DNA of 64,000 nt from a virus. Shown here one piece after another: positions 4,385 to 61,872 of this stretch. How positions within the stretch are numbered: position 1 is the first letter of the stretch; every line of letters begins with the position of its first letter. A program made the position numbers and the translations under genes. The DNA lies in IMG/VR virus record IMGVR_UViG_3300033156_000775, positions 1-64,000 of that record. One strand, 5' to 3'. The notes under the pieces were generated by a model, which saw only the letters and a program-made list of their open reading frames with translations, was not told the DNA's origin and ran no database searches.

Positions 4385-4678
4385 ATGAAGCGGAATAGTC
4401 TATTAGAGAAGCTACTGAATGAGGAATATGTCAGGAGCCTAAGTGAACGGAGATATAAAGAGCTTATGTTCTGTAAGGAGATACTATCAGAGGATGAACT
4501 TAGACAGTACAGCTCAATAAGTGTGGCGTACTCAGTAGCTAGGAACAAATTGATAGAGGAGATACTGCCAAAAATAGATGAGGAGCTAGCCTTCATAGCT
4601 AAACATAAGCATTTCAACACTATACATGCCTATGAATACTACAGGGACAAGATACAGAGCGTCCTAGATGAGATGTAG
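4385..4678 (+). CDS. Hypothetical protein
   Basis: ORF with GGTGA RBS; stop codon lies inside a palindrome copy. Confidence 0.55.
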   Translation: MKRNSLLEKLLNEEYVRSLSERRYKELMFCKEILSEDELRQYSSISVAYSVARNKLIEEILPKIDEELAFIAKHKHFNTIHAYEYYRDKIQSVLDEM

Positions 4679-4723
4679 TCCGGACTACAAATGTTTTTCT
4701 AACTGACATTTGAGCTTCATTCC

Positions 4724-5950
4724 TTGGGAGCTCAAATGTCCAGTGATCGTAGTAACTTCCTATTCTTATGGCATAGTGTTAGTGCTCAAATAAGATCTGG
4801 CTATGGCGGATGTACTAGACATATAGTAGGAAGGCTAGCTAAGAAGGGATTTAGATTTGTAACTACACATTACTATGGTATAGACCCTGGTGGAGTGCTA
4901 GTGCTAAATGGAGTTCCAGCTCTACCTGCCAAGACAGGTAGCTTTGGAGAGCTGTCTGTAAGACACTACGTTAACACATTAAAACCGAACATGGTGTGGT
5001 TGCATACTGACCCATGGGCCTTCCCTTGGATGGTGAGTTTACCATGCTTGACTGGTAGCTATGGACCCTTAGATCATATTCTTTATCCAGAGAATCTTCA
5101 GCAACTCATGAGGCAATATAATTATAGAGTGGCCCCTGCTAAGTTTACAGTAGAGGAGTGGGCTAAGTATGACCCTCCAGTGTACTTCGACTGGATACCT
5201 CATGGTGTAGAGACCTCTGTCTACAAACCAATGGACAAGGCTGAAGCTAAGCGATTCTATAAGATAGACCCAGAGTCATTTGTAATGGGAATGGTTGGTG
5301 CTAATAGTGATAAAGAGCCGAGAAAGGGATGGACATTGATGTTCAAGGCTATCAGGATGTTCCTAGATAACAATCCTGATGTAAGAAACTTTAAATGTGT
5401 AGTGTACACTAACCCTAAAGATCAAAGAGGAATAGATATTGAGCTGTTCCTTAAGAAGTATAAGCTAACAGACATTTCCGTTACACAGTCTCCATTCCTG
5501 TTTGAAACAGGGATCAAGGATGAGGAGATGGCTAGACTGTACAATGCATTTGATGTACTGCTACATGCATCGTACCGTGAAGGATTTGGGCTTTGCATGT
5601 ATGAGGCAATGAGCTGTGGAGTCCCAGTAATAGCCCATGACTTCAGCTCAATGACCGAGGCTGTTGTAGAGGAGAATGGCACTAGACATGGATGGCTTGC
5701 TAAGACAGCTGTCTATGTTGACACCCCTATAGGTGCTACCAGTGCCATCCCAGACGTCTACTCCATAGAGAAATGTATAGAGAAAGCATACTTTAGGGGA
5801 AAGACTAGACTTAGATATGCTAGGAATGCTAGGAAGTTTGCATTGAAGTTTGACTGGGACAGGATAGTCAATGAGATGTGGACTCCATACCTGGACAGAA
5901 TAATAGAGGAGAACCGGCCTAAGGATCTTAGCAAACGTAAGCTTGTGTAG
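4724..5950 (+). CDS. Glycosyltransferase family 4 (GT-B)
   Basis: SGYG, IPHGV, RKG and EGFGL..YEAMSCGVPVI motifs. Confidence 0.9.
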   Translation: MGAQMSSDRSNFLFLWHSVSAQIRSGYGGCTRHIVGRLAKKGFRFVTTHYYGIDPGGVLVLNGVPALPAKTGSFGELSVRHYVNTLKPNMVWLHTDPWAFPWMVSLPCLTGSYGPLDHILYPENLQQLMRQYNYRVAPAKFTVEEWAKYDPPVYFDWIPHGVETSVYKPMDKAEAKRFYKIDPESFVMGMVGANSDKEPRKGWTLMFKAIRMFLDNNPDVRNFKCVVYTNPKDQRGIDIELFLKKYKLTDISVTQSPFLFETGIKDEEMARLYNAFDVLLHASYREGFGLCMYEAMSCGVPVIAHDFSSMTEAVVEENGTRHGWLAKTAVYVDTPIGATSAIPDVYSIEKCIEKAYFRGKTRLRYARNARKFALKFDWDRIVNEMWTPYLDRIIEENRPKDLSKRKLV

Positions 5951-5982
5951 TCCGGACTACACTTTAAGGTGTGTAATTAGAT

Positions 5983-7825
5983 ATGGCTAGAAATAAGCTT
6001 CCAGACATCATGGCTGGCTGTATGGTTAAAAGTGTTTGAGTATGGCAAGAGCAGTGACAGGACTCTAGACCTAATCAAGGTCTTCAAGAAAGAGTCTGGC
6101 TTCAACGTTGAAGTGTATCAGGAGCCAAGTGACATCTACCTTAAAAAGTATGGTACACATGCATCTGGATGTGTACTTAGAGACTTCCAGTCCCTGATGA
6201 TGGACAATGAGGACTATTTTCTTATGCTGGACTCACATATAATGAGTGCTCCTAAGGATTATATTGAGAGGCTACTGTTCATAGACACTGATATTTCAGC
6301 TCCATATGTGTGGAATGAGGGACACACCCATTTCTATGACAGCTGGTGCTTCAGGATAGACAATAAAAGGTTCTCTCCATTCCATCCTCCAGACCAGCTA
6401 TACTGCTTCGAAGTTGACAGTGTAGGCACCACGTGGCTAGCTACTAGAGAGTCATTCCTAAACACATTTGTCTCCACCAACCCACTGAGCTTCTTCTACA
6501 ATGCAAGGACAATGGGATATGATGTTGTAGTAGACCCTAAGACACGTGTCGTACACTCAGACCTGACCAAATATGGGATAGTTAAGCTTCCTCCTCCACC
6601 TGAGCTTGGATACTATCCTAGTGAGGGGCTAGTTGACTCTTCCTTCCCAGTCACACCATACAAGAAGACAAGCAAGTCCATCTTCCATCGGACTTTGTAT
6701 GATAGCTTATGGTATTTCGTAGAGCTTAAAGCTCTTGAAGAGTGGTGTGTGAGCCCTATATACAAAAAAAGGACGTTGAGGACATGTAGAAGCTTTGTTG
6801 ACATGAACACGTTCTTCTGTACCAGAGATCCCTTCAAGATTAACGTAATGTACAAGGTTGAGATGTATCCTAGATATATAGAGGTAGAGCTGTCCAACAT
6901 TTGCCCCTTCAAGTGTATATGGTGTGAAAGGACATATCTTGAAGAAGAGCCTAGGCTGATGAGCTGGAAGGAATTCATGCTTATAATGAGCAACTTCCCT
7001 GACCTAGCTCAGATGTCGTTTACTGGTATAGGGGAGGCATGGACCAACCCTATTTTCCTAGATTGTATTAAGTATATAAAAGAGAGAGGAGTGTTCTTTG
7101 AGCAATATGACAACATGCAATTCATCACTAAAGAGAGAGCTGAAAAGCTAGTTAAGTATGGGGTTGAAAGAATAATTATCTCTCTAGATGCAGCTACTAA
7201 GAAGACTTATGAGAGAGTTAGAGTTGGACATAAATGGGATAAGATGCTGGATGGGCTTCGATATTTACAAAGAGCTAAGAAGAAGTTTAACGCTTACTAC
7301 CCAGTTATTGGGATTCACTTTGTTATTAACAAGGCTAATGTCCATGAAGCTCTAGACGTGTTAGATTTAGCTAAGCAGCTAGGAGTAGACTTTGTGTTCT
7401 ATAATAGGCTCCTACATAATTATCCAGAAATAAGTCACCTATACATGGAGATCCCTGAGTCCCTTAGAAGGGACATCATGGAGAGAGCTGGGGACCTGAG
7501 CATCAGGATCTCAATCAACCAGCCAGCTCAGGGAAAGCTACCTCCATTGAATGCATGTGTAGCACTGTTCCAGCCCTTCTTCCTAGTCAATGGAGATGTC
7601 ATCACTTGCTGTGCCCAACATGAGCATAATAAGCGTGACTGGGAAAAGGCAATGAAAATGGGCAACATATTTGAGGCTAGGGACTTCAGGAAGATATGGT
7701 ATGGCAAACGCTACAGACATCTGAGGAATCTCCTATACCAGAACAGACTTCCAGAGTACTGTATTGACTGTCCAGTATATGAGTGGAGAGGACACAAAGT
7801 ACACAAGGCAGTTGATTTAGAATGA
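5983..7825 (+). CDS. GT2-like glycosyltransferase fused to radical SAM/SPASM domain (frame break near 6030)
   Basis: FLMLDS..EVDSVGT (GT-A-like), CPFKCIWC (CxxxCxxC), and SPASM C..NGDVITCC..CIDC. The likely N-terminus MARNKLPDIMAGCMVK (5983-6039) is in another frame from ORF 6032. Confidence 0.8.
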
Positions 7826-8763
7826 GAATATTGATTCTTAACCCATCATTCAGAGTGTATGGTGGAGCTGAACTGGCCATCGTCAAGCTAGCTAATTATC
7901 TAAGAAACAGAGGAGACTCTGTTACAATCTATACTCTTGAAATGTCCAGTGAAGTAAAAAGAGATCTTGAAGGGACAAGTATTGAACTGTTTAAATCAAT
8001 TGAGGACTTAAGGAAACATCTCCATGGGACATATGACAGCTATGAGGTGATTAACTCTCACAACCATCCTATGGAGCTAATGCTTTATCCAATAAACTAT
8101 CCTCATATATGGTTCCACAATGAGCCTCCTGAGTATGTGCTGTATGGAAGGAGGCTTTCCCTATCAGAGAAGGCAATAGTCGTAAAGACAGTGGACAAGA
8201 TAGTATCAGCTACAATAGTTCCCTTTGGAGTTGACACCACGTTCTTTGACAGGGCTAAGGCTAATCCAGCTAGGGCTGAGATGAAGCTCGGACTACATGA
8301 ATCAGACTTTGTAGTGTTACATCCAGGATGGTTCAGCCCCTTCAAGAATCAATTTAGAACCCTATTAGCGTATACTGAGCTTCGGGACAAAGTCCCCAAC
8401 CTTAAGGTTGTGTTTCCAGGTATGACAAATACAGATTACTACAAGTACATTGCCAGAGCCATCAAGATCCATAGCCTAGATGGGATTGTTATTCCTGGAT
8501 TCATATCTAGAGAGCTTATGAGAGACCTCTATGCAAGATGCAATGTAGCTGTCTTTCCATACAGAGAGCAAGGTGGATTCCTAAGCATATTTGAAGCCCT
8601 AGCTATGGAGTGTAACGTCATAGTGTCTCCTGAATCTCCATGTATAGAATACATTGAAGAGAATGGTCTTTGCATAGTATCCAATAATCTGGAAGATGAG
8701 ATAATAAGGATTTATAAGGGCAAATACGGTTATCCGACAGCTAAAGCTAGGAAGTGGATTTGA
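7822..8763 (+). CDS. Glycosyltransferase family 4
   Basis: MRILIL..YGGAE, KNQ and EQGG..SIFEALA motifs; C-terminus looks truncated. Confidence 0.85.
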   Translation: MRILILNPSFRVYGGAELAIVKLANYLRNRGDSVTIYTLEMSSEVKRDLEGTSIELFKSIEDLRKHLHGTYDSYEVINSHNHPMELMLYPINYPHIWFHNEPPEYVLYGRRLSLSEKAIVVKTVDKIVSATIVPFGVDTTFFDRAKANPARAEMKLGLHESDFVVLHPGWFSPFKNQFRTLLAYTELRDKVPNLKVVFPGMTNTDYYKYIARAIKIHSLDGIVIPGFISRELMRDLYARCNVAVFPYREQGGFLSIFEALAMECNVIVSPESPCIEYIEENGLCIVSNNLEDEIIRIYKGKYGYPTAKARKWI

Positions 8764-9485
8764 AGCATAGAGTTCCAGGATCCATAGAGCCAGGGATATG
8801 TGTAGCTAGCCTCTGCCATAATGAGATATCTATCCTTCCACTCTACTACAAATTTGTAAAGCAGTTTGCAGATACTTGGATTATACTTGATGATGGAAGC
8901 ACTGATGGCAGTGTAGAACACATTAAGAGGCTACAGGATCTTAGAGAGATCGATATAATGCTTGTCTCAAGGCCAGCTTTCCATGTTGCAAAGCATAGAG
9001 TCTATTGGGCTAATTGGAATTATATATTTAGGCTCTGTGACAGAAAATGGACCCTTCTAGGATACCTTGATGAAATAACTTATCCGAACCCAGCTGATTA
9101 TTTCAGGAGAATGATGAAGGAGCATGTAGTCTGGAAGATAGGAAGGGAAGAAATTGTATCCCTAAATCCTTTAAAGTCTCTTGGACGTGAAGGGCCATTT
9201 GTGAGGTTCTTTCCCACAGGATCTACATTCTTTGAAGCTAAAGCACAATCAGCACATGTTGAACATCCTATAACCAAATTACCAATCAAAGAAGCTCCAT
9301 TCAGATTCTTCCATATTGGTAGATGTAGAGAAATAAAGCATATCCAAGAGAAAGAGAGAGCATATGAAGCTTGTGGACCTAGTGCTCTTACCTCTCAATA
9401 TAACCAAGAAAGGAGACTAGAAGATATTAGGAATGCTCATCTTATACCTGACAATGGCTTTACTAACTGGCTGCTAGGAGGGTAG
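8754..9485 (+). CDS. Glycosyltransferase family 2
   Basis: CHNE...ILDDGSTDGS...YLDE motifs. Confidence 0.75.
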   Translation: MDLKHRVPGSIEPGICVASLCHNEISILPLYYKFVKQFADTWIILDDGSTDGSVEHIKRLQDLREIDIMLVSRPAFHVAKHRVYWANWNYIFRLCDRKWTLLGYLDEITYPNPADYFRRMMKEHVVWKIGREEIVSLNPLKSLGREGPFVRFFPTGSTFFEAKAQSAHVEHPITKLPIKEAPFRFFHIGRCREIKHIQEKERAYEACGPSALTSQYNQERRLEDIRNAHLIPDNGFTNWLLGG

Positions 9486-9521
9486 CGTGTAGTCCGGACT
9501 ACACTTTGGGAGTAGAGGTAA

Positions 9522-10367: not shown

Positions 10368-11401
10368 TAAAGTTGATCTCTCTTGTGATTCCAGTTTATA
10401 ACGAGGATAGCTCTATTGGTGAAGTTATAGAGGACTTTATTAAATGTCCCCTAATATCAGAAATCATTGTAGTGGATGATGGATCTACCGATAGGACTCA
10501 GGAGGTACTGATGAAGTATCCTATAACCATAATTAGACATGAAAGGAACAGGGGATATCTGGAAGCTATAAAGTCCGGATGTAAGGTAGCTACTGGAGAC
10601 TACATTATGATTGTGGATGGAGATGGACAGTACAAGTGTAGTCCGGACTTCATAGCTATGAGAGGGGACTATTTACTTTCAGGAGCTAAGACTAACAGAG
10701 CTGACCCATTACCTAGAATATTTCTTTCTAGAATAATGAATCTGATAAGCAATTGTGGATACAAATTGTTTCCAAGAAGCCTAGTACCTATACTAATGGA
10801 AACTAGGACTCTAAGAAATATTCCACTAACTGAGTTCTGTATTAGAGCTTCTAGAATGGGCTTTGATATTAAAGAGGTAAGCATACCACACTACCCACGT
10901 AAGCATGGTAAGAGTAGAATATTCAGGAAATTAGCTAAGTCAGCCATTGAGTCCCTGGTTGGACTCCTAATATTATGGGCTAGGGAAGCTTATGACTTGA
11001 TATCTGGAGCTATAATTTCAAGAGCTAGAAATCTTCTAAATAGAAATTTCTCTCTAATTGACACAATCTATATTGGAGGACATAGACATGGAAAGTTTCC
11101 AGCTTCAGTTAACACTACATTCTTTGAAGAGGGCAAGTATGTTCATCCTCTCATACTAGATGGATATGTGGAAGTAGTAAATGCAAATCTTAGAGTGATT
11201 AGACCTCTAATAATTTATTGTAAGTATGGTAGAGGAAGATCTGTCCTTGTAGCATGTGCATACTTAATAAAATATAGAAATATTAGCTGGCTAGAAGCAT
11301 TTTATAAGGTAAAGCATAAACACTCAATAGCCTACTTGACTCCTGAGCAGTTTAAGGCTCTAAGGGATTACGAAAGGTATTTGGAGGGTAAATGGAAATG
11401 A
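10364..11401 (+). CDS. GT2 (dolichol-P glycosyltransferase-like) fused to a CX5R dual-specificity phosphatase
   Basis: VIPVYNE, VDDGSTD, DGDGQY and R.HGKS motifs; C-terminal IYCKYGRGRS..VACAYL. Confidence 0.8.
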   Translation: MIKLISLVIPVYNEDSSIGEVIEDFIKCPLISEIIVVDDGSTDRTQEVLMKYPITIIRHERNRGYLEAIKSGCKVATGDYIMIVDGDGQYKCSPDFIAMRGDYLLSGAKTNRADPLPRIFLSRIMNLISNCGYKLFPRSLVPILMETRTLRNIPLTEFCIRASRMGFDIKEVSIPHYPRKHGKSRIFRKLAKSAIESLVGLLILWAREAYDLISGAIISRARNLLNRNFSLIDTIYIGGHRHGKFPASVNTTFFEEGKYVHPLILDGYVEVVNANLRVIRPLIIYCKYGRGRSVLVACAYLIKYRNISWLEAFYKVKHKHSIAYLTPEQFKALRDYERYLEGKWK

Positions 11402-12366
11402 ACATTCTTGTTACTGGATATCCAGGATGGTTAGGGAGCAGACTTGTAGAGAGATTATTAAAAGAAAGTAGGCACAAACTTAGAGTTTTATGTCTAAGGA
11501 ACATCCCAGTTAGAGCTTCTAGTAATCTCCAGATAGTAAGAGGAGATGTTAGAGAGCTCTACACTTTAATTGAAGCTACCAGAGACATTGACCTAGTTAT
11601 TCATGCAGCTGGAATAATTCATGCTAGACCAAAGACACTAATAGAAGTGAATGCTCAGGGAACTTTAAATATGCTCAGAGCTTGTGAGCATAATAATGTT
11701 GACCGTATGATCTACATTTCTTCTAACTCAGCAGCTGGATATACTGAGGATAAAGTTCTAATGACTGAAGGGACATTAAGGAAGCCCTACATGGCATATG
11801 GAAAATCTAAATTCCTAGCAGAGGAATATGTTAATGGCTATTGTACAGATGGCAAGATAAGGGCCTTGACACTTAGGCCCTGTTGGTACTACTTCTCTAA
11901 TCAGCCTCCTAGACAGACTAGGCTTTTCAAGATGATCCAGAGTGGAAGGCCAATAATATTTGGAGATGGACTTAACATCAGATCCATGACGTACATTGAC
12001 AATCTAGTTGATGCTATCCTGCTAGCTATTGAGTCCCCATTCACTAACAGGACATATTGGATAGCTGATGAGAGGCCATACACTATTAACGAGATCTATG
12101 AGACAATAGCTGATCTTCTAAATGTAGAGGACTTTAATCCAATCCATATTCCAAAGATAGCTTCAGATTTAGCTAGGGTTGGAGATAAAGCTCTACAGAA
12201 GCTGGGTCTTTACTCAACATACTTGCATGTAGCTGGAGAGATGAGTCTTAATATAGCATGTAGCATAGAGAGAGCTAGGAGAGAGCTTGGATACGAACCT
12301 AGAGTATCGTTAAGAGAAGGAATGAAGCGTTCTATAGAGTGGTGTAGGAAGAAAGGATTGCTATGA
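11392..12366 (+). CDS. NAD-dependent epimerase/dehydratase
   Basis: TGYPGWLG Rossmann motif and YGKSK (YxxxK). Confidence 0.9.
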   Translation: MEMNILVTGYPGWLGSRLVERLLKESRHKLRVLCLRNIPVRASSNLQIVRGDVRELYTLIEATRDIDLVIHAAGIIHARPKTLIEVNAQGTLNMLRACEHNNVDRMIYISSNSAAGYTEDKVLMTEGTLRKPYMAYGKSKFLAEEYVNGYCTDGKIRALTLRPCWYYFSNQPPRQTRLFKMIQSGRPIIFGDGLNIRSMTYIDNLVDAILLAIESPFTNRTYWIADERPYTINEIYETIADLLNVEDFNPIHIPKIASDLARVGDKALQKLGLYSTYLHVAGEMSLNIACSIERARRELGYEPRVSLREGMKRSIEWCRKKGLL

Positions 12367-13349
12367 AGATTCTTATCACTGGTGGAAGTGGATTCATAGG
12401 GTCAGCTCTAGCTAGAGTGTTGTCCGGACTAAATTATGAAGTCTATACCGTGGACATCCTAGATCAGGCAGTAAACAATGTTTTCCATATAAAGTCGGAC
12501 TTTACTAAAGTTCCATTAGAAATCCTCAGGAAGATAGATGTGGTCTATCATTTAGCAGCTAAGCTTCCTATCCATAAGCTGTCATTCAGGGAGTATTTCC
12601 TAGAGAACACTTCTAAGACATTTGACTTGTTATGGAGATGTAAGGAAGCTAACATCAACAGATTCATCTATGTCTCATCATCTGCTGTGTATGGCTATCC
12701 AGAATGCCCATTAACCGAGGCCTCACCTAGAAAGGCAAGGGAGCCCTATGGCCATTCTAAGCTCCTAGCTGAGAAGGCCTGTGAATATTTCAGGGACACT
12801 TATGGTATGAACATCTCTATTGTCAGACCTAGAACCGTTATTGGCCATGGAAGACTTGGAATTCTTTACTTGCTGTTCTACTGGTTCAGCAACAACAAGA
12901 ATGTATACCTCTTAGGAGATGGGTCCAATAAATATCAGCTCCTGTCATTAACTGACTTGATAGATGCATTGGTTAGACTAGGCAGTTATGGTTCTTACCA
13001 GGATTTCAATCTAGGAGCTGAACAATATAGCTCTCTTAGAAATGACCTTTTTGAATTGATCTATAATGTCAATTCTAGATCTAGGATTGTATCTTTACCT
13101 TCCACTATTGGAAGAATATTTTGTAGGACTCTAGATAAATTGATTCCTCTAGCTCCATGGCATTATGAGTTTATAGATAAAGATTTCTATTTCGATATAA
13201 GTAAAGCTAAGACAGAGCTAGGATGGAAACCTAAATTCTCCAACTTGGAAATGCTGCTAGAGGCTTATAGATCATATTTAACGGGAGAATATGGGCTGTC
13301 TCCACATAAGTCTCCAGTCACACTGAAGCTTCTAAGATTGTTGCCATAA
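12363..13349 (+). CDS. NAD-dependent epimerase/dehydratase
   Basis: TGGSGFIG, SSSAVYG and YGHSK motifs. Confidence 0.9.
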   Translation: MKILITGGSGFIGSALARVLSGLNYEVYTVDILDQAVNNVFHIKSDFTKVPLEILRKIDVVYHLAAKLPIHKLSFREYFLENTSKTFDLLWRCKEANINRFIYVSSSAVYGYPECPLTEASPRKAREPYGHSKLLAEKACEYFRDTYGMNISIVRPRTVIGHGRLGILYLLFYWFSNNKNVYLLGDGSNKYQLLSLTDLIDALVRLGSYGSYQDFNLGAEQYSSLRNDLFELIYNVNSRSRIVSLPSTIGRIFCRTLDKLIPLAPWHYEFIDKDFYFDISKAKTELGWKPKFSNLEMLLEAYRSYLTGEYGLSPHKSPVTLKLLRLLP

Positions 13350-13520: not shown

Positions 13521-13538
13521 GTGTAGTCCGGACTACAC
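13521..13538. repeat. Perfect palindrome copy at the + to - strand switch
   Basis: GTGTAGTCCGGACTACAC between convergent genes. Confidence 0.95.
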
Positions 13539-13548
13539 TTCTAGAAAC

Positions 13549-13914
13549 TTACAGGAGCTTGTACCTTATTAGATAGGTTATCTTACAATTGGGACTAGTG
13601 CTAGTCCAAATTATTTCGATTGGATCATCTATTTCTCCATCAATCTTTATTTCTGGAAGAGACAGCATGGTGTGGACAGCACAATAAAGCTTAGCAATCA
13701 GCTTGCCAGATGAGAACTTAGCTTCTATCTCTCCAGCTGTGCTATCTGTAAACATGTGGGCAGCTCTTGTACTTACTTTAAACCCAGATGGTGGAGTGTA
13801 AATAGTAACTGGAGAGGAATCAGCACCAGTATCTATCTCTCCAGATATCCCATCCTCAGAAGCTAACATGTCTGATTGGTTTACAGGCTTCTTTCTCTCA
13901 CAGTAGACACTCAA
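13549..13914 (-). CDS. Hypothetical virion protein (possible decoration protein)
   Basis: Beta-rich ORF directly downstream of the capsid gene. Confidence 0.45.
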   Translation of the reverse strand: MSVYCERKKPVNQSDMLASEDGISGEIDTGADSSPVTIYTPPSGFKVSTRAAHMFTDSTAGEIEAKFSSGKLIAKLYCAVHTMLSLPEIKIDGEIDDPIEIIWTSTSPNCKITYLIRYKLL

Positions 13915-15033: not shown

Positions 15034-15035
15034 CC

Positions 15036-15627: not shown

Positions 15628-17670
15628 CTAGATCTTCCTCTTAGCTTTAGCATAGTAGTCCTCTATGAGGATGTCAGCTATAGTCCCAAATGCATCTTCA
15701 GACTTCACTATCTTGGATATAACTTCATGTGCAGTTGGAGTCTTAGGGGCTTCCTGCTCTCCACTAGGTGGAGCTTGCTTTCCCTCTTCCTTCTCAGCTC
15801 CCTCCTTAGAGGGTTCCTGCTTCTCTGTTTTTATCTTCTCTGTGTCAGATTCCTTTGGCTTTTCCTTAGATGTGTCAGTTGATTGACCTTTGCCTTCCTC
15901 TTTAGATTGTTCAGAACCTGCTTCAGATTCTACATTCCCTTTTTCCTCCTTAGTATCACCTTCATTGGACAACTCAGTGTTGTCCGGACTACACTCTGAG
16001 TTCTCAGCTTCACTCTGCTTCTCTGGATATTTACCCTCTCCATACTTACCATACTTCTCTGAGTGTTCCTTGTTGAAGTGCTCTATCATCTCCTCCTTAG
16101 AGTCAAACTCCTCTCCACATACTGGACACTTCACCTTCTTTAGTTCCTTTTCCTTTATCTTCTTAGACAGCTTCTCCATTATCATGTCAGCTATAGCTTC
16201 TAGGTTCAGGTTAGCTACAAAGTCCCTTGCTTCCTTCTCAGTGTCAAACTGCTTAACTATCTTCCATAGCCCCTTCTCAGAGGCCTTCATAACAATGAAC
16301 TTACCAGTCTTCTTGTTCTTAACTATCCTGTAGTCAGCTAGCTTGGAGATTTCCTCTAAGTCGGACTCATCTATTTTCTCTTTAGCTAGCTTACCTCCAG
16401 TGCCTCTAGGTGGAAGCAGCTTGTATGCTAGGTCTCCTATGAGCTCCAGTAGCTTCTCAGCTTTCTCTTTACCAAAGTGGGCTATTAGTCTTTCCTTCTC
16501 TGTCCTGGGCCCTGTCCCCTCTGAATAGGCATAGTATGGATGATAGTAATAGTATGGGACATAATATCCAGGATAGTAATAGTAGTAGTAACCAGTCTTA
16601 GTTTTCTTTTTTCTAGCTCTGCCCTTCCTAACTAATTCCTCTAGCTCATCCTCAGAAAGGTCAGGTAGCTCCTCAGAAAGTCCATGTCCATAGTAGGGAT
16701 AATAGTATGGGTAGCCATAGTATGGATAGTAATAGTAATATCCCTTCCTACGCTTAACAGTCTTCTTAGCAGCAGGATACTTACCAGGTGGATAATATTC
16801 ATAGATAACTCTTTTTCTCTTTAGCACTTGAGCTAGGTCTGATATTGGTACAAACTCAAGCTCAACTTCCTCTTCCTGATCTTCCAAGTCCTCTTCAGGT
16901 AGAAGGGCTACCATTGGTTCAGAAAGCTCAAAGTACTCTTCCTTCTCTCCAGATCCTTCTTGAGGCTCATTAGCCTCTTCACTTTCAGACATACTTTCAA
17001 CCTCCTCTCTACCTTTATTTTCATTACTTTTATCCTTTTCTACAGGGATAATTGTGAAACAACATGCTACCTGAGGCTCAGTACCCAAGTTAGAGCTTAA
17101 GGCTTCTTTGGAAACTATAACACAGCTCTTGCAAGCAGGCATAGAAGTAAGAGAGATATTAATAGGCTCGTAATCTGTACCAATCTCCCTTCCGTTAATG
17201 TTGACTCTCTTAACCTGTAGCTTCATGCTGGTAGCTGGGAATGTACCGTCCTTAACCATCTCTATGGCTTTGGGATCAGTGATGTAAGCCTCATACTTAA
17301 TAGCTCCAAGCATATCGTCCCATTCAGAACTAGCAGTCTCCCCTACTTTTCTAGACTTAAACTCTTCTGTCTTTTCATGCTCAACTGTTATTGGGAGCTT
17401 CCTTAGCTTGTCCTTGTATCTTTCATACATCTTCTTTATTTCTGACTTTACATATGGAAGGCCATTCCAGACTCCCTCAGCTAGCATTATGCCTGCTATC
17501 TTTAGCTTTTTGCCCTCCATACCCAAATTAGTAATGGAGGACAATGTGCTTACAAAGTCTACACTTAGCTCTTCAACATTTTGTTCCTTAAGCTTCTCTT
17601 TAAGAGTGCTAAGCTCTTTTCTGAGCTGTTCATTCTCAGCTAGAGCCTCCTCAAGAATACTAGCACTCAT
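15628..17670 (-). CDS. Prohead protease/scaffold with Tyr-rich tract and C2H2 Zn finger
   Basis: EGVWNG..PITVEH..VG..SLTSMPAC (prohead protease-like), YYYYPYYGYPYYY tracts, CPVC..H..H, acidic linker; upstream of the MCP. Confidence 0.7.
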   Translation of the reverse strand: MSASILEEALAENEQLRKELSTLKEKLKEQNVEELSVDFVSTLSSITNLGMEGKKLKIAGIMLAEGVWNGLPYVKSEIKKMYERYKDKLRKLPITVEHEKTEEFKSRKVGETASSEWDDMLGAIKYEAYITDPKAIEMVKDGTFPATSMKLQVKRVNINGREIGTDYEPINISLTSMPACKSCVIVSKEALSSNLGTEPQVACCFTIIPVEKDKSNENKGREEVESMSESEEANEPQEGSGEKEEYFELSEPMVALLPEEDLEDQEEEVELEFVPISDLAQVLKRKRVIYEYYPPGKYPAAKKTVKRRKGYYYYYPYYGYPYYYPYYGHGLSEELPDLSEDELEELVRKGRARKKKTKTGYYYYYYPGYYVPYYYYHPYYAYSEGTGPRTEKERLIAHFGKEKAEKLLELIGDLAYKLLPPRGTGGKLAKEKIDESDLEEISKLADYRIVKNKKTGKFIVMKASEKGLWKIVKQFDTEKEARDFVANLNLEAIADMIMEKLSKKIKEKELKKVKCPVCGEEFDSKEEMIEHFNKEHSEKYGKYGEGKYPEKQSEAENSECSPDNTELSNEGDTKEEKGNVESEAGSEQSKEEGKGQSTDTSKEKPKESDTEKIKTEKQEPSKEGAEKEEGKQAPPSGEQEAPKTPTAHEVISKIVKSEDAFGTIADILIEDYYAKAKRKI

Positions 17671-17708: not shown

Positions 17709-17733
17709 TATTTAAATGTTGTCCGGACTACAC
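17709..17733 (-). promoter_or_regulatory. TATA box (TTTAAATA) for the protease/capsid operon, abutting a palindrome copy
   Basis: Minus strand reads GTGTAGTCCGGACAACATTTAAATA, about 40 nt upstream of ATG 17670. Confidence 0.5.
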
Positions 17734-17734: not shown

Positions 17735-18043
17735 CTATGGTAAGTCAGCTATCACCTTTATTGAAAATGTAGGAGTAATATACTTGAGTCCAGCATTATC
17801 GACTATTTCTAATTCACCTTGGTAGTCACCAGTAGGCAAGTCGTCCTGATACAGATATCTGCATTTCCCATTTGTAGGGTCATGGATCTCACATGACCCA
17901 TCTATCCTTAATGTTGATTCTCCATATTTCTTAACCTGGAGAGTGGCTGATGCTCCTGTGAGATTAAAGTAATTTCCATCAACATCCTTTATGGTGAACT
18001 CTAAGTAGACTGTCTGTCCAGTTATTATTTCTAAGTCAGCCAT
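17735..18043 (-). CDS. BppU-like baseplate/adaptor domain protein
   Basis: FTIKD.DG...NLTGASATL...G.C.Y...D...G.Y.GELEI pattern. Confidence 0.65.
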   Translation of the reverse strand: MADLEIITGQTVYLEFTIKDVDGNYFNLTGASATLQVKKYGESTLRIDGSCEIHDPTNGKCRYLYQDDLPTGDYQGELEIVDNAGLKYITPTFSIKVIADLP

Positions 18044-37783: not shown

Positions 37784-37852
37784 ATTATATAAAGCTATAT
37801 CTGCACTACAGTGTAGTCCGGACTACACTTCTCAATGAATAAGCTTATTAAC
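37784..37852. promoter_or_regulatory. Divergent archaeal promoters flanking a palindrome copy
   Basis: TTTATATA on minus (about 37785-37792) toward MCP2, TTATTAA on plus (about 37845-37851) toward the tail tube; palindrome at 37811-37828 between them. Confidence 0.55.
37811..37828. repeat. Perfect palindrome copy at the - to + strand switch
   Basis: GTGTAGTCCGGACTACAC between divergent genes. Confidence 0.95.
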
Positions 37853-40810: not shown

Positions 40811-40850
40811 AATGTAGTCCGGACTACACGCAGTGTAGAGGTGAATTGAG

Positions 40851-43520: not shown

Positions 43521-43726
43521 AAATAACAATTGAAAGGGTTGATCCTGAGGAAATAATTAGGGAGATAGTAGGGAGTATCCCATATCATGTCAGGAAGTCA
43601 GGTAATAGGATAGAGATCAAAATTGAAGATGCTGACGCTAGAACACTAAGTGTTGTCCGGACTACACTTAGAGACAGGATTAAGAGGAAGCTCCCTAGAG
43701 GATGGAAAGTGAGGATTGATGGGTAA
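43517..43726 (+). CDS. Hypothetical protein
   Basis: ATG overlaps the upstream stop; contains an in-frame palindrome copy. Confidence 0.5.
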   Translation: MKITIERVDPEEIIREIVGSIPYHVRKSGNRIEIKIEDADARTLSVVRTTLRDRIKRKLPRGWKVRIDG

Positions 43727-47990: not shown

Positions 47991-48539
47991 GTGCTGATGG
48001 GAAGGCAATGCAAAGTCTGCTATTCGTTGCATAGGAAGGAGTATGAGGAGCTACGCTTCCAGAAGTACCTGAAGCTGAAGGAGATCCAGGAGTACGCATG
48101 GAACAAGTATAGGGAGAAGCTGTCCATTGGGACTCTTTCTAGACACTTCAGGTTCCATGTTGAAGAGATACTGCATGCTCAGATAGAAGCTTCTAGGCTT
48201 AGGGCTGATGTTCTAAGAGAAGAGATACACAAGGACATTAGAGTGGCTAGGGCACTGAGGGAGAACCTAGAGATTCTAAATGAGCAGCTTAGCAGGGTAA
48301 GTGAGCTTGACAGTCCAGACCAACGTAACGAGGCTAGACAGATCATAGCTAAGATAAACGACACTATTGAGCTGCTTCTAAAGTTCTCTGACAAGATAAA
48401 GCTTGAAGAAGCAGGACCTAGTGAGGATGAGATCTTTGATAGAGTGGTGTATGCATTGGAGCCTCTACCTAATGAATATGTTATAGAGTTTAAAAAGAGA
48501 TGGGACGAATACCCAAAAGTTAAAGGGAAGAAGCAATGA
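47991..48539 (+). CDS. Terminase small subunit (candidate)
   Basis: CKVC + HTH + SRH..H, then coiled coil; overlaps the start of the large terminase. Confidence 0.6.
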   Translation: MLMGRQCKVCYSLHRKEYEELRFQKYLKLKEIQEYAWNKYREKLSIGTLSRHFRFHVEEILHAQIEASRLRADVLREEIHKDIRVARALRENLEILNEQLSRVSELDSPDQRNEARQIIAKINDTIELLLKFSDKIKLEEAGPSEDEIFDRVVYALEPLPNEYVIEFKKRWDEYPKVKGKKQ

Positions 48540-50840
48540 AAGATGTAGTCCGGACTATATATGAAGTCCCGGGTAGTGTTAAGTTCCAGCTGTTCTTATG
48601 GTACAAGGACCCAGTGCTCTTCTTCAGAGAAGTCTTCAATGTAGAGCCATACAGCTACCAGAAGAGAATCCTCAAGGAGTTTGTGAACTTAAAACGGATG
48701 ATGATCTCAGCTGCCTCAGACACTGGTAAGACACTTCTGCTAAGTGCACTAGCGTTATGGTCAGCTCTGGTAAAGTCCTTCATAGAGGACATCAAGTATC
48801 AAGTTGTGATTCTAAGTGGCTCCAGAGAGCAAGCTGAACGGCTATATCAATACACCAGGGAAGCGTTGATGTCTAGTGAGGTGCTCTACCCACTTGTGGT
48901 TAAGGAAAGAGGTAAGCCTAAGATCCTCAAGAGCTACGTTGAGTTCATCAATGGATCATGGATAAAGACATTTGCCAGGGCACTGACATCAATCCAGGGT
49001 GTACACGCACAGATGGTGATTGTTGATGAGGCAGCTCTTAAGGAGCTGGACTTCTTCATCAAGGATACTCTGAGAATATCCAGAATATGACCCTAAGAAA
49101 TGTCCAGATGGATGGAGGAGATATCACTGGAGTGCCGATGAATGTCCTAGGACCAAGAAAAAGCTAGAAGAGGCTAAGACACTGGATGAGGAGACATTCT
49201 CAATATACTATGAGGGGAAGCCATACAGCAAGGACCCAAACAAGGTTGTACCTATACATCTAATCAGAAGACAGTCTGAAGGTATCAAAAGATTCAAAGT
49301 AGATCCAGCTAACAGAGCTGGACTAATCATCTTCGGGGTCGACTACGGATCATGCTTTTCAGAAGACACTCAAGTCCTGACTAATCATGGATGGAAATAT
49401 TTCTATGAACTAAACCCATCCGACCTAGTTCTAACTTTGAATACTAAAACATTAAAAGCAGAATATCAGAAACCAAAGAAGATTCATTCTAGATTCTATT
49501 CTGGAGAAATGATATGGATTCATTCTAAGAATCTTGACATACTAGTGACTCCACATCATCCTATTCCCTTTCTTGATAGAAACAAGAAGAGACTCCATTG
49601 GCACTTGGCTTTCGAACGGACTACACATGATTATCTAATTAGGAAAGCTCGGTTTTCAGGATATAAACCAGATTTTTGGGAGATTCCTGAATATTATAAT
49701 GAATACTGGTGTGGACATTACCATTCAAGTCATAGAGAATATTTCAAGCCAAAGCTAAAAGTTCCAATTGAAGATTTCCTTAGGTTACTAGGCTGGTATC
49801 TATCAGAAGGTAATATTTTCAAAGAAGGATTTTACATCTCCCAGTCTAAGCTGAAACACCCAAAATATTGTGCTGAAATCAGTGCCTTACTCTCTCGACT
49901 TGGGCTAAATGTTGATTATAATTTCAACAACACTACTAAAGGCGGATACTTCAGAGTTTTCTCGATGCAGTGGAGACAATATTTTGCTCAGTTTGGAGAA
50001 AGTGAAGAACGATTCATCCCAGAAGACATTAAAAATCTAGATGGTTCTCTCCTAGAAATCCTTCTTGAGACCTTGATGAAGGGAGATGGTGCCAAAACTG
50101 GTTTTTACTACTGGACGGATTCAAAACAATTAGCAGATGACCTGCAGGAGATAGCTTTAAAGACTGGTAGATACATCCCTTGGATAAGCTCCAGGATCCG
50201 TAATGGGAAAGTAGAATACTCTGTACATATGAAGCAGACAGACTCTAGCCCTAACAAGAAACATTACGATGAAGTCAAATATTCTGGTAAGATTTGGTAC
50301 ATAGAAACTGAAAATCAAACATTATGTGTACGAAGAAACACTAAACCAGTATTTCTACATAATACAGCTGGGACGATGCTAGCTATTTTGCATAAAGTCG
50401 GTAAAGAATACCATCTCATAGATTTGCTAGAATGGAAAATGCAGAAGTACGATGACGTACAGGACTGGATAGAGTCTGTAACTGAGCTCTATAAACCGGA
50501 CTACATATTTGTAGATGCACTGCCTAAGGGAGAGTCTGAACGCACAGTTGACAGGCTTGGACAGAAGGGGTACACTGTGACTCCAGTGTTCTTCTCTCAA
50601 GAGAAGTCTAGGTACCAGACTAGGATGAGAAGTCTATTTAGCCTTGGACAAATATGGATTCCAGAATCGTTTGTAGACCTTCTAGAAGAGTTAAGAGCGT
50701 ATGAGTGGACTACCAAGAGAGGAGATGATAGAGTAGTAGCTTTGATGCTAGCCCTGATTGACCCTGAACCTTCAGAATCACAGTCGGTATTTGGGATAGC
50801 TGCAAGACCAATCTCCAGACCACTCTCCCATCGACTGTGA
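48536..50840 (+). CDS. terL: Terminase large subunit (frame break near 49075; intein in the nuclease domain)
   Basis: PYSYQ, Walker A AASDTGKT and Walker B VIVDEAA; a second frame gives W..YHW...CP, FGVDYG, IFVDA and GDDRVVAL. Confidence 0.85.
49353..50363 (+). mobile_element. LAGLIDADG intein in the terminase nuclease active-site strand
   Basis: GVDYGS|CFSEDT..VTPHH..LGWYLSEG..LMKGDG..VFLHN|T; 337 aa. Confidence 0.9.
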
Positions 50841-50990
50841 TGCCCGGACTACACTTCAGCATCTCCACCCCCTTCCTTTACGATACACCAAACATTCCAA
50901 CCCCAATAGAAACTAAACACCATTCATATAATAAGAAGAGAAGGGAGAGAATTCTATTCGTTTAAAAAAAAAGATATGGAGATCCTAAGG

Positions 50991-51511: not shown

Positions 51512-52252
51512 CTAATCCTCCTTTATGGTTGATTCTAAGATGAGCTTCTCATGCTGAAGCTCATCTATAACTCTAAGGATCAGCTTAGGGTTATGGTTAT
51601 AATACACTTCACAGACACCTTTAATCAGCTCTAGAACTTCAGAATTATCCAAGCTCATTATTAGATCTAAATTGCAGTACACCCATTTTTTAATGTTCAC
51701 AAATGTCTGTTCAGCTCTAGTGTTATATGGTCTTTTCTGGTTTTTAGGATATACGACTAGAGTTATTCCTATCCTCTCAAGGGCCTTAGCAACCTTCATT
51801 AAAACCCTATCTGAACGTAGATACTTGATATTTTCCCCAGCATCTAGAGCTTTTTGAACCAAGAATAACACTTTAAAGCTATTTTCAACTCTACCGATCC
51901 ATAAATGATACACTACCCGATTAGTCTTAATGTTTCTAATTGTGCCTAAAATTATGCCCTTTAAGACTTTTCTAGAATGATGTTTATCAGCTATCGAACC
52001 GTTAGTTATCGGTCTGGTGAAGTCTAAGACATGAGTTATTTTCTCAATAGGGACATGATCATTCAGCTTCTGTTTCTGATGTGGATTATGCTTATCAAAG
52101 TCTCTTTTAGCTTCATAAGATTCAGCTTTAAGCAACCAATTCTTAATTGTCTGATGTGACACATTGTAACACTTAGCTATAGCCGTTAATCCAAAGTTGA
52201 GCTCATGAAGCATTTTTATCTCATTGATCTTTTCCATTTTTCCAACCCTCAT
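51512..52252 (-). CDS. HTH + DDE/integrase-core-like protein
   Basis: GLTAIAKCYNVSHQTIKNWL (HTH); IAD...YLRSD...PYNTRAEQTF resembles an rve D-D-E core. Confidence 0.5.
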   Translation of the reverse strand: MRVGKMEKINEIKMLHELNFGLTAIAKCYNVSHQTIKNWLLKAESYEAKRDFDKHNPHQKQKLNDHVPIEKITHVLDFTRPITNGSIADKHHSRKVLKGIILGTIRNIKTNRVVYHLWIGRVENSFKVLFLVQKALDAGENIKYLRSDRVLMKVAKALERIGITLVVYPKNQKRPYNTRAEQTFVNIKKWVYCNLDLIMSLDNSEVLELIKGVCEVYYNHNPKLILRVIDELQHEKLILESTIKED

Positions 52253-54816: not shown

Positions 54817-55732
54817 AAATAATTTCTCTATTCCTCCCTATGTAGTCCGGACAACACTTTAAGGAGAAACTAATTTGTCCTCTAGAAAAGATTTATTCCT
54901 CTTGTGTAGAAGGTTAGGAACAGAAAGATGCAAGTACAGAAATTCTTATTGCTGTCTTGTTGGGTATAAGCCAAAGGGAAAGTGTCCAGCTGAAAATGAT
55001 GTGTAGTCCGGACTACACTCTCATGGGTCTAGTCTATCTATATCCTAGATAGACAGATAAACCATGAAAGGAGAAATAAAGATGAAAATTGAACCATACG
55101 TGCTTGATGAGATTGAGAACAGAATAATGCAAGTGATTGAGTCCTTAACTGAGAAGCTTGATGCTGATGATGCTGATATTACTGAGCTTCGTATTTTAAT
55201 AGAACACATCCATGTCTTGAAAAGACATCTTCAGGCTTAACGGGAAGGATGTAGGTTGTCAATTGAGATAAGTGAGGAGGACATATGTAGATTCCTAAAG
55301 CTGAAGATGGGAAGAAGACCGTCCCCTTCAGAAGTCAAGTCCTTCATCAGCTATCTGGAAATAGACATGCCAGAATGGCTGAATGACAACTTCAGAAGCT
55401 GGGAAAAGTGTAGTCCGGACAACACTTGTTAGGGATGAAAATTATGAGTAAAGCTAAGAGAGTAAAGGTTTATCTTGAAATAACTGATAAGAGCTACACA
55501 GCTCTCTACACAGCTTCAGACATAGCTGACATCCTAGAAAAAGCACTATATGAAAATCTGATTGAATACTACATTATTAGAGTAGTGGAAATTTAAAGTT
55601 GTTAGTCTCTTGACAAGAGCTGATGTTTATCTTGTCAATTATAGATCATTTCTTCATAGGATATTTCCTTTCATGCTTCTTCTGGATTGGATACTTGTTA
55701 TATAAATCTAGAAAGAAGAAATAAGCCCTAGA

Positions 55733-56657: not shown

Positions 56658-56864
56658 ATGAAGCAGCTAACATTCTATGACTTTGAAGGGTTTAGAGAGC
56701 TATGTCACTTCTTTGATGAAGTGCATGAGGAGCTAGCTGACATGTATGAGGCATTGAAGAAACCTAGAGCATATATCAAGGTTGAGCTGACAGGATACAC
56801 TGGAGATAAAAGAGATGTTCTGGAGATCAAGATCCCTAATAGTGTAGTCCGGACTACACTCTAG
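56658..56864 (+). CDS. Hypothetical protein
   Basis: ORF ends in an in-frame palindrome copy (VVRTTL*). Confidence 0.5.
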   Translation: MKQLTFYDFEGFRELCHFFDEVHEELADMYEALKKPRAYIKVELTGYTGDKRDVLEIKIPNSVVRTTL

Positions 56865-59277: not shown

Positions 59278-59907
59278 AAGGAGGAGAAAAAAGAAGAGGA
59301 AAGCTACAGAGGAAACAGGTGGCATACTAGTAGTAGTGGATGATAGGGATAGGAGCAGTGAATTGTCATACCATATCCGTTGATTGCCAGGATCTCCAGC
59401 CTAGTTTCTAGACTTCATACTGAGTGGCTAGGTTACTTGGACTATGAACAGGTTGAGGACAATGGTAGACTTGTGTACAGAGCTACAGAGATTACTATCC
59501 CAGATCAGGAGGTCACATACTCATCGGTAAACGTTAACGATCCTGCTATAGGGATAGGTAAAGGAGTCATCCACTGTCATCCCTGGAAGGGATATTCATC
59601 TCATTCTAACACTGATGAGGACTACGTTGATAGGAATCATCCCTTCAGCATAGTTGTAAACAAGGACTTGGACTTCTCTGTAAAAGCTGTAGTAGACGTC
59701 CCATGTGGGTCTAGGATACTAGTAGATGGGGAAGTAGAAATTGAATATCCAGATGTGGATACCAAGTCCTTCCTAGAGGAGGCTAAGAGCAAAATCAAGG
59801 AGAAGAAGTATGTCTACAGATACTCTGCATCTAGGAAAAAGTCATCAGGGATAACTGCTATGGAGTATGGGTACCTAGATCCATACTCATATTCCTGGAT
59901 GCCGTAG
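59270..59907 (+). CDS. JAB/MPN+ metalloprotease (deconjugase), frame break near 59360
   Basis: EWLGYL..PDQEV..IHCHP....HSNTD (JAMM motif); the RBS-preceded TTG 59270 is in another frame from ORF 59380. Confidence 0.8.
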
Positions 59908-60061
59908 TCCGGTCTACATCTAGAGAATGATAGACTATGCCTCTAGCTCTTCTAATCATATCGTTAGTTGTATGGATAGTTGACTTTATACGTAGACCTA
60001 ATCTATGGGAGCATTTACCCCTATCTGAGCGTTACAGACAGAAGTTTATACGGGACTGTCC

Positions 60062-60358: not shown

Positions 60359-60594
60359 TGAGAGCTAAGAGGTTAACATGTAAGATGGCAGATAAGGTAG
60401 TTACAATTTGGGAAATCGTTATCTATAGAGATGGATGGGAAAGGACAGGGATAATAGCACTTGACTCATATCCACATACAGCTTCTCATGCATGTAAAGA
60501 GGCAGGACTACTAGCTGACAGGTTTGGGATCTTTAAAGAGATTTATAGTTATCCTTACACAGCAACATGGCTGAGGACAATTAAACTTGAATAG
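60355..60594 (+). CDS. Hypothetical protein
   Basis: ATGA overlap with upstream gene. Confidence 0.45.
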   Translation: MMRAKRLTCKMADKVVTIWEIVIYRDGWERTGIIALDSYPHTASHACKEAGLLADRFGIFKEIYSYPYTATWLRTIKLE

Positions 60595-60605
60595 GAGATA
60601 GGTCT

Positions 60606-61841
60606 ATGGAAAGCTCTATGGAATGGATACCATCTGAAATACTGTCATCAATTAGAGAGGAGCTCAAGGGAGCTAGAAGTATCCAGGATATCAGGAGTAT
60701 TGTAGTCCAAGCTACAAGATGTAAGCCTGGTGACATTAAAGATTTCCATTACAAGCTTGGAGGACATGACTGGAAAGGGGTGATCTATACTAAACGGAAC
60801 ACTCTTATGGGATCAGTATTCTCACTGTTTGACAGTAAACCCTTTGTAGTTAGAGGCTATCCTAAGATCAGATATGCATTAGATTCTAAACTCTTAGGAA
60901 AGGAAGTAACTGTACAGATGAAGTATGACGGGACTAACATTGGACTTTTCCTCCTACCTAATGGAGAGATCATGGGAAAGACTAGGCTGATGCCTAGATG
61001 GGATGTCCAGTCTTTACAGGCTATGAAGAGACAGGTTTCTCATTGGAAAGAGCTCTTTACGAAGATAGATGATGGCTATCTCCTTAAGCAAGTCAAGTAT
61101 CTAGCTGAAGATGACTACATGATATTTGGAGAGCTCTATGGATATCTAAATCCTGGAGAATTCATTAAATATTCAATTCCAATAGCCTTCAAAGCTTTCG
61201 ATATAGTTGACACTAGGACACTAAAGTTTCTTAGCTCTAAAGACATGGAGGATCTATGCTATGAGCTGGACATTCCATATGTAGAGGAGCTATGGCATGG
61301 TATCCTAACTAGGAAAGAGGTTGAACGAATAGAGTACGAAGCTAAACAGTATGTAAGAGAGGATGGCTATGAGGGATTTGTAGCTAAGCATTTCTCCCCT
61401 ATAGATAACGACATGCACTTCTGCAAGCTTAAATGTGAAGAGATAAAGGAGAAAGCCTGGAAGCTTAGACCTACTGGAATCCCAATTTCTATTATTCGTA
61501 AAGCCATACGAAAGGCTATGGAAAGCTACCCATACTATGACAAAGTAGATCAGCTATATCCAGTAGTTAGAGAGGAGCTCCTAGAAGAAGTAGAGCCCTC
61601 ATTGGTAGATGAATCAGAGAACAAGATAAGATCTGTTATTAGAAGAGTACTGTCTCCTACACCTGAGGAGCTAAAGAAGTCCATAAGGGAAATTATGCTT
61701 GAGCTTAGGGAGAGAGGTATGGACTTGAACAAGAAGGGAGAAGTGCTCCCAGCTCTAGCTCATCGTCTAGGAGACATATCAGGAAAAATGCTTTACAGAC
61801 TTTACACTCAAGTCTTATTTGAGATGGAAAGTGAAGTGTAG
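60606..61841 (+). CDS. ATP-dependent RNA ligase (Rnl2/Rnl3-like)
   Basis: VRGYPKI, KYDGTN, FGELYG, AFDI, EGFVAK and KLK motifs. Confidence 0.8.
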   Translation: MESSMEWIPSEILSSIREELKGARSIQDIRSIVVQATRCKPGDIKDFHYKLGGHDWKGVIYTKRNTLMGSVFSLFDSKPFVVRGYPKIRYALDSKLLGKEVTVQMKYDGTNIGLFLLPNGEIMGKTRLMPRWDVQSLQAMKRQVSHWKELFTKIDDGYLLKQVKYLAEDDYMIFGELYGYLNPGEFIKYSIPIAFKAFDIVDTRTLKFLSSKDMEDLCYELDIPYVEELWHGILTRKEVERIEYEAKQYVREDGYEGFVAKHFSPIDNDMHFCKLKCEEIKEKAWKLRPTGIPISIIRKAIRKAMESYPYYDKVDQLYPVVREELLEEVEPSLVDESENKIRSVIRRVLSPTPEELKKSIREIMLELRERGMDLNKKGEVLPALAHRLGDISGKMLYRLYTQVLFEMESEV

Positions 61842-61872
61842 TCCGGACTACATTCTTAAGGAGAGTTTCCTA

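Follow-up and report, generated by a model that had tools for sequence, protein, structure and literature searches.

Dispersed palindromes in a large tailed virus are candidate DNA sites for an orphan ParB-type protein

A dispersed palindrome in a complete virus genome

The IMG/VR record IMGVR_UViG_3300033156_000775 is a complete virus genome of 107,029 bp with direct terminal repeats of 114 bp. The stretch considered here (the window) is its first 64 kb (positions 1–64,000), which encodes the capsid, tail-tube and terminase proteins of a tailed virus; coordinates given as 'genome' refer to the whole record. Allowing up to three mismatches, a 16-mer palindrome, TGTAGTCCGGACTACA, is found 31 times in the window, where 0.16 occurrences are expected, and 48 times in the whole genome, 29 of them exact. 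The reading that best accounts for these copies is that they are sites on double-stranded DNA for a virus-encoded binder of two-fold symmetry, that an orphan ParB-type protein is the best candidate for this binder, and that the placement of many copies at gene ends is mainly a matter of packing. We assign this reading a probability of about 0.55.

The central CCGG of the motif is unchanged in all 40 oriented copies scored. Outside the 16-mer there is a weaker extension to 20 bp; position −1 is a purine, usually G, and position +1 is C or T, with a weak A preceding and a weak T following. The wider flanks are also weakly symmetric, being A-rich or purine-rich before the motif and pyrimidine-rich or T-rich after it. 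There is no directional element and no orientation bias relative to transcription. TATA boxes beside the motif were considered, but the T-rich downstream flank is mirrored by the A-rich upstream flank, which indicates a symmetric extension and not a promoter. Copies lie at intervals of roughly 2 kb over the whole genome, and their spacing is more even than random (coefficient of variation 0.66–0.69, against 0.97 for random placement; P ~0.003).

The exact 16-mer is held by 98 metagenome contigs. About 50 of these are relatives of the virus at 65–97% nucleotide identity; the others show no nucleotide similarity to it, yet carry 2–5 copies each. The motif is found in no other IMG/VR contig, and the 185,579 prokaryote genomes searched hold only 16 single chance matches, so an origin of the motif in a host genome was rejected. 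Among orthologous sites that played no part in finding the contigs, conservation is 92.7% for the motif and 83.7% for its flanks (P = 4e-5). The 16-mer site is under selection.

Evidence for a site on double-stranded DNA

The DNA of this lineage (353 kb) contains 129 exact and 31 variant copies. All 31 variants break the dyad on one side, and none carries a compensatory or wobble-preserving change. Copies inside genes come at a cost in codon usage: all 17 of the intragenic copies examined use CCG or CGG, the two rarest codons of the genome, which elsewhere make up 3.4% of proline and 3.0% of arginine codons, respectively. Comparison with a sister virus shows that intragenic copies arose in variable stretches of protein with small length differences, and not by clean insertion of a unit. 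The combination of an invariant centre, symmetric flanks, uncompensated one-sided variants, conservation and rare codons is characteristic of a site where a protein binds double-stranded DNA, and it indicates that the 16-mer acts at the DNA level, not as RNA.

Sister viruses carry other palindromes

Four complete sister viruses (G003, G006, G007 and G008) have 64–77 proteins in common with this virus at ~48% identity, and the protein matches of G003 fall in the same gene order. None of the four contains a copy of the 16-mer. Three of them have dispersed dyads of their own. In G007 and G008 this is a 13-mer, GATAGT-N-ACTATC, which occurs exactly 15 and 21 times, respectively (32 and 34 times at one mismatch), and in G006 it is a 17-mer, TATATC-N5-GATATA, with 24 exact copies; random genomes used as a control give at most 3 copies of a dyad. 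The dyads of G003 and of the more distantly related G001 reach only 6 copies each. Between 60 and 78% of dyad copies in the sister viruses are inside genes. The trait is thus conserved while the sequence switches, as would be expected for a protein and a site that co-evolve, and this suggests such a pair.

Placement relative to stop codons

The original prediction, made from the letters of the window, was that the palindrome copies are phased to gene ends, either supplying the stop codon or beginning exactly 1 nt after it. All eleven of the coincidences it listed are present in the sequence, although two rest on doubtful open reading frames (ORFs) of 36 and 43 amino acids (aa). The TAG within the motif is the stop of the ORFs ending at 4678, 5950, 59907 and 61841, and a TGA likewise ends TerL at 50840. 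In a further case of this type, at 55006, the coordinate is right but the ORF has only 43 aa. The other five cases were described as an 18-mer starting 1 nt after the stop, which corresponds to a 2-nt gap before the 16-mer (+2). Four of these stops, at 9485, 40810, 17735 (−) and 33276 (−), end ORFs of 102–440 aa, whereas the fifth, at 13519, ends the doubtful 36-aa ORF. A more fitting description of the site at 13522 is that it lies at a convergent junction, with the stop of 13549..13914(−) 11 nt away.

When stop-to-motif distances are compared with uniform placement, the proposed enrichment is confirmed: the gap is between −5 and +9 at 17 of 43 sites, where about one is expected. It is exactly −5 at 6/43 sites (0.05 expected) and exactly +2 at 5/43 (0.06 expected). 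However, the idea that the motif supplies stops beyond what its own TAG entails is not supported. Fifteen copies reach into the final 80 nt of a gene; 7 of them terminate it, against one third expected (P = 0.20), and the remaining 8 are read through in two open frames, as VVRTT or CSPDY. The 'supplied' stops are a by-product of the motif's own TAG, at the chance rate for its frame.

The exact +2 phasing holds up in part. It accounts for 5 of the 11 gaps in the 0–9 range, for which P = 0.003 if the offset is taken as named in advance, but it was picked out post hoc, and correction for 10 offsets leaves ~0.03. A +2 gap places the stop directly against the weaker 20-bp extension. In 31 independent site clusters of related metagenome contigs no +2 gap occurs; the gaps there include −5, −5, 0, 1, 5, 7, 12 and 15. 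A general hugging of upstream stops by the motif is real: in roomy junctions it lies at most 8 nt from the upstream stop in 7 of 11 cases, against 2.5 expected (P = 0.003). The dyads of the sister viruses are also enriched beside stops (5–8 observed, ~1.2 expected), their mostly intragenic copies nonetheless. This includes the dyad of G006, though its conserved arms contain no stop codon.

The usual junction with a motif consists of a stop, the 16–20-bp palindrome, 13–22 nt that include a ribosome-binding site, and a start codon. For 17 copies in total, the next start lies 10–29 nt beyond the end of the motif, and the interval contains a purine-rich ribosome-binding site. A copy is present in 2 of the 93 junctions below 30 nt and in 20 of the 57 longer ones. 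Copies are present at 3 of the 4 strand-switch junctions, and 22 of 43 copies are wholly inside genes. Among the readings first proposed, the data (the junction layout, the counts of 2/93 and 20/57, and the chance rate of TAG stops) favour the one in which the site makes use of stop codons to find room in a compact genome.

Such packing could come about as follows. A fixed sequence of 16–20 bp would be costly inside genes since it forces rare CCG or CGG codons, and about half of the copies would for this reason sit in short intergenic spacers. Within a spacer, a copy would be pressed against the upstream stop because the ribosome-binding site and the start take the downstream side. Where the upstream frame reaches the TAG of the motif, that TAG would become the stop, at the chance rate. 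The earlier observation is in this sense real but mostly explained. For annotators, stop codons that appear to be 'supplied' by the motif would be a by-product of packing, not a signal.

A candidate binding protein

A ParB-type protein of 290 aa is encoded outside the window, at genome 95678–96550. It matches ParB_N (PF02195) with 43.8 bits against a cut-off of 26.3, and a helix-turn-helix also scores above its Pfam cut-off. The GGRRYMAA and ENVVRLDL boxes are kept, in line with a ParB N-terminal domain of the CTPase fold and its arginine-rich GxxRxxA box. In phmmer searches residues 20–165 align to residues 23–169 of Spo0J (1vz0; E = 5e-12), and Noc (7ng0 and 7nfu) is matched over both domains. 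By these matches the protein is a genuine member of the ParB/Spo0J/Noc family. A search of the complete genome for a ParA partner (PF13614, PF01656) gave no match, and the protein is therefore taken to be an orphan ParB like Noc and not part of a ParABS partition system.

Homologues of this protein are encoded by all four sister viruses at 31–37% identity, and no other DNA-binding candidate is common to all four. The recognition helix starts with HR in three viruses with the same 16-mer, including L106, whose ParB is only 50% identical, and with SH or SP in sister viruses with other motifs. The even spacing of the copies would suit loading sites for a protein acting genome-wide. The orphan ParB-type protein is the best candidate binder of the palindrome, a binding we infer. 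As proposed here, a virus-encoded protein of two-fold symmetry would dock on double-stranded palindrome copies kept about every 2 kb over the genome. If the ParB-type protein is this binder, the copies would be parS- or OB-like sites for loading or operator function, serving genome-wide control or organisation.

Several observations weigh against this assignment. G003 has a ParB homologue but at best a 6-copy dyad. The recognition-helix pattern tracks phylogeny in addition to the motif, and it is based on only about five lineages. No motif copy is found beside the ParB gene in any sister virus. The lineage-specific gene for a winged helix-turn-helix protein (genome 82760–83065) ends on a motif TAG, and its product remains an alternative candidate binder. 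Finally, the hugging of stops in roomy junctions may reflect a function of the gene-end position itself.

Two other proteins were considered and set aside. A DNA methyltransferase (genome 86161–86940) is unlikely to define the site, being 81% identical in G003, which has no motif. An 80-aa protein (genome 69319–69561), which matches no Pfam family, is the only protein common to five motif contigs that are unrelated at the nucleotide level (L058, L088, L065, L071 and L097). Each of these contigs has a motif copy upstream of the gene and no more than ~100 nt from it; several of the five are mutually homologous and thus not independent. The gene is missing from the close relatives L044 and L096 and from the four sister viruses.

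A wider picture, which we offer only tentatively, is that a clade of ~110-kb, probably archaeal tailed viruses marks its own genomes throughout by means of an orphan ParB-type CTP clamp and virus-specific, fast-switching parS-like palindromes. The palindromes might then do three jobs: loading of the clamp over the chromosome, roadblocks at gene ends, and crossover points for inversion and reshuffling of structural modules as in L074 (see below).

Alternative explanations

The placement at gene ends could itself be the function, with copies placed there by selection and the bound protein acting as a transcription roadblock, or punctuation, after cistrons in the manner of symmetric stoperators. 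The stop-hugging in 7/11 roomy junctions, the same bias of three unrelated dyads in the sister viruses and the copies at strand switches would all fit. However, 22 of the 43 copies are wholly intragenic and yet conserved, the sister viruses place most of their copies in genes, and the site is symmetric without regard to the direction of transcription. Even spacing is also not predicted by punctuation of genes. It seems rather unlikely that the gene-end position is the function.

RNA hairpins at cistron ends, for protection, processing or termination of mRNA 3' ends, had also been suggested. Many copies do lie between cistrons, and a stem of 6–7 bp with a CCGG loop is possible. The predicted fold has a modest energy of −6 to −11 kcal/mol (z-scores −0.4 to −2.0), and no U-run follows the stem; the copies thus have neither the compensated stable stem nor the U-run of an intrinsic terminator. 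Terminator-like sites are not enriched in the virus, and an Rfam search gave no match. The invariant loop, the lack of compensation in all 31 variants and the conservation of intragenic copies likewise argue against a hairpin. The dyads of the sister viruses, with a 1-nt centre or with 6-bp arms that are AT-rich or consist of AT only, would be expected from their sequences to fold poorly. We consider an RNA function improbable.

Recombination sites that bound exchangeable cassettes or modules, as attC sites or the promoter stem-loops of T4-type phages do, are a further alternative, part of which was raised in the original prediction. A point in its favour is in L074, where one copy is chimeric, with the left flank of the 37812 site and the right flank of the 33258 site, a true crossover inside the motif. 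The virus also encodes RadA and a nuclease of the ERCC4 type. The structural-gene modules 13549–32945 and 33276–37752 occur in four orders or orientations among this virus, G003/G006, G007/G008 and L074. All three module boundaries in this genome carry exact copies, but this was rejected as proof of recombination: since 40% of roomy junctions carry a copy anyway, three of three is only suggestive (P ~0.06). When relatives are compared, several indels start 0–9 nt past a copy, but indel edges have to fall beside the motif if both neighbouring genes are to stay intact. Gene gain and loss among relatives, the comparison by which cassette boundaries were to be recognised, affects 40 of 74 junctions without the motif and 13 of 23 with it (odds ratio 1.1), so that variation is equal at the two kinds of junction.

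The narrower proposal of attC-like cassette boundaries is unsupported on further grounds. A search for a tyrosine recombinase (PF00589) or integrase found none, and among relatives no inserted cassette is flanked by two copies. The likeness to attC is that a palindromic element stands right after a stop codon, sometimes overlapping it. attC sites are imperfect palindromes of 57–141 bp that work with a tyrosine integrase and occur one per cassette, and the copies here share none of these features of size, integrase or number. A role as recombination sites is on balance quite unlikely.

That the palindrome is a selfish miniature mobile element (REP, RPE or MITE type) is highly improbable: the copies are many and near-identical, and the weak helix-turn-helix matches of the gene 51512..52237(−) are similar to the heads with which resolvases and transposases bind DNA, but intragenic copies show no clean unit-length insertion, no target-site duplication is visible in the flanks, orthologous positions are kept across relatives of 65–93% identity, and elsewhere the 16-mer is limited to the chance matches described above.

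Comparison with known systems

The nearest mechanistic model for a ParB-type protein acting on dispersed palindromes is KorB with its OB operators on the IncP-1 plasmid RK2 (PMC11790492), together with Noc and its sites in Bacillus. In the virus there is likewise a ParB-family protein with a CTPase-type N-domain and a helix-turn-helix, and a short perfect palindrome (~13–16 bp) is dispersed over the replicon, at and away from promoters. The virus shares with Noc the lack of a ParA partner. The 13-mer of G007 and G008, with its single central base, has the format of OB. RK2 has about 12 OB sites, compared with ~48 sites on 107 kb here. Unlike the KorB system, the replicon is a lytic-looking tailed virus that is probably archaeal, no KorA-like partner was identified in it, the site sequence changes between sister viruses, and the binding is predicted from sequence. 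Mobile elements commonly encode ParBs of the orphan kind (PMC12704722).

The nearest descriptive precedent is in the Cluster O mycobacteriophages, which have 17-bp dyad repeats in more than 30 near-invariant palindromic copies per genome with no function assigned (PMC4351075). About one third of these are intergenic, one third near gene starts and one third intragenic, without orientation bias, and the phages encode ParB-domain proteins (PMC4351075). Here, too, tens of near-invariant dyad copies are spread over the genome of a tailed virus, part intergenic and part intragenic. The Cluster O repeat differs in its unrelated sequence, its 3-bp spacer and its bacterial hosts, and neither stop-codon hugging nor motif switching among relatives is reported for it (PMC4351075).

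The stoperators of Cluster A phages are asymmetric, oriented with transcription and bound by the monomeric immunity repressor of temperate phages (PMC9283540). They resemble the present copies in being dozens of repressor sites in short intergenic spacers across a compact phage genome. In contrast, the site described here is a perfect palindrome with symmetric flanks and no orientation bias, in a genome without an integrase.

Dispersed palindromes in tailed viruses have thus been noted before, in Cluster O, without a function. That the sister viruses keep the trait and change the sequence points to a co-evolving pair of protein and site, for which the orphan ParB would be a concrete and testable candidate. 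If this is correct, plasmid-style control of the ParB/KorB kind would extend to large viruses that apparently infect archaea.

Copies in the window

The 31 copies in the window are listed in Table 1 with their positions relative to neighbouring genes.

Table 1. Copies of the 16-mer palindrome in the window, with their match to the consensus and gene context.
Position	Strand	Match	Context
641..656		exact	inside gene 372..1400, read VVRTT; exact in L025 and L056 (L056 only 65% identical around the copy)
4674..4689	+	exact	motif TAG is the stop of 4385..4678; next start 46 nt downstream
5946..5961	+	exact	motif TAG is the stop of glycosyltransferase gene 4736..5950; next start 70 nt downstream
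8282..8297		3 mismatches	inside gene 7822..8763
9488..9503	+	exact	2 nt after stop of 8760..9485; 18 nt before start at 9522; L050 homology begins exactly here
10637..10652		1 mismatch	inside gene 10511..11401, read CSPDF; identical variant in L109
12418..12433		2 mismatches	inside gene 12363..13349
13522..13537		exact	convergent junction and module boundary; 11 nt from stop of 13549..13914(−); 2 nt after stop of doubtful 36-aa ORF (ends 13519)
15978..15993		1 mismatch	inside gene 15628..17670(−)
17717..17732	−	1 mismatch	2 nt after stop of 17735..18043(−); 46 nt before start at 17670
18966..18981		exact	inside 2008-aa gene 18048..24074(−); L068 has an exact copy at its position 350, in a stretch aligned to 18936–19058
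19218..19233		2 mismatches	inside 2008-aa gene 18048..24074(−)
26002..26017		exact	inside 25646..26119(−), read CSPDY; variable stretch, sister virus G003 two residues shorter
27953..27968	−	exact	last codons of 27921..32945(−); 21 nt before start of 27611..27931(−)
28782..28797		2 mismatches	inside 27921..32945(−)
33258..33273	−	exact	2 nt after stop of 33276..34184(−); module boundary; one parent of the L074 chimeric junction
36589..36604	−	exact	17 nt before start at 36571(−); 77 nt after stop of capsid-like gene 36682..37752(−)
37812..37827		exact	divergent junction 37752(−)/37936(+); module boundary; other parent of the L074 junction
39613..39628		3 mismatches	inside 39488..40810
40813..40828	+	exact	2 nt after stop at 40810; 22 nt before start at 40851
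43651..43666	+	1 mismatch	near 3' end of 43517..43726; exact in L067
48544..48559	+	1 mismatch	4 nt after stop of 47997..48539; start of TerL ATPase ORF; exact in L086
50490..50505		3 mismatches	inside TerL, encodes YKPDYI; motif-less G003 reads YKPDHI; probably coincidence, not a site
50838..50853	+	3 mismatches	first three bases, TGA, stop TerL; convergent junction
54841..54856	+	1 mismatch	intergenic; 18 nt before start at 54875
55002..55017	+	exact	TAG ends 43-aa ORF 54875..55006, doubtful as a gene
55409..55424	+	1 mismatch	last codons of 55256..55432; 10 nt before start at 55435
56843..56858	+	exact	last codons of 56658..56864; 18 nt before start at 56877
59903..59918	+	2 mismatches	TAG stops 59473..59907; L081 and L099 exact at the aligned position, without the next 139 nt
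60701..60716		3 mismatches	inside 60606..61841
61837..61852	+	exact	TAG stops 60606..61841; next start 20 nt downstream

The virus and its probable host

The host is probably archaeal. This assignment follows from the best labelled relatives of the terminase and capsid, which come from metagenome bins of Thorarchaeota and Thermoprotei, from the archaeal architecture of RadA, from an archaea-specific DUF2153 protein, and from the lack of enrichment of bacterial promoter- and terminator-like sites. A megablast search against a phage collection gave no match. Besides RadA and the ERCC4-type nuclease, the replication and repair genes include a family-B DNA polymerase and ligases. Stop codons are used evenly (52, 50 and 49), and ORFs in the standard code cover the genome, which together rule out an alternative genetic code.

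CpG depletion is extreme, with an observed/expected ratio of 0.25 here and 0.04–0.31 in the relatives compared (G001, G003 and G006–G008). GCGC and CGCG do not occur anywhere in the genome. Avoidance of CCGG was considered as a signature of restriction and rejected; it is explained by the general depletion of CpG, and outside the motif CCGG is at its Markov expectation.

The TerL gene is divided into two ORFs, an ATPase part (48536–49090) and a nuclease part (49509–50840), separated by a gap of 418 nt. The TerL proteins of relatives contain LAGLIDADG inteins. L027 has an 85-nt match to the TerL gap (49362–49446), and in L027 this match lies ~110 nt beyond the counterpart of the 4674 motif copy. 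The gene 27921–32945(−), of 1674 aa, combines a beta-lactamase-fold domain, intein/LAGLIDADG signatures and an ATP-dependent ligase domain. Close relatives (83–90% identity) carry extra coding segments of ~66–88 nt, missing from this genome, at six or more loci; these include window positions 34507, 6030, 41360 and 49077 and genome positions 77387 and 88778, and the inserts are mutually unrelated.

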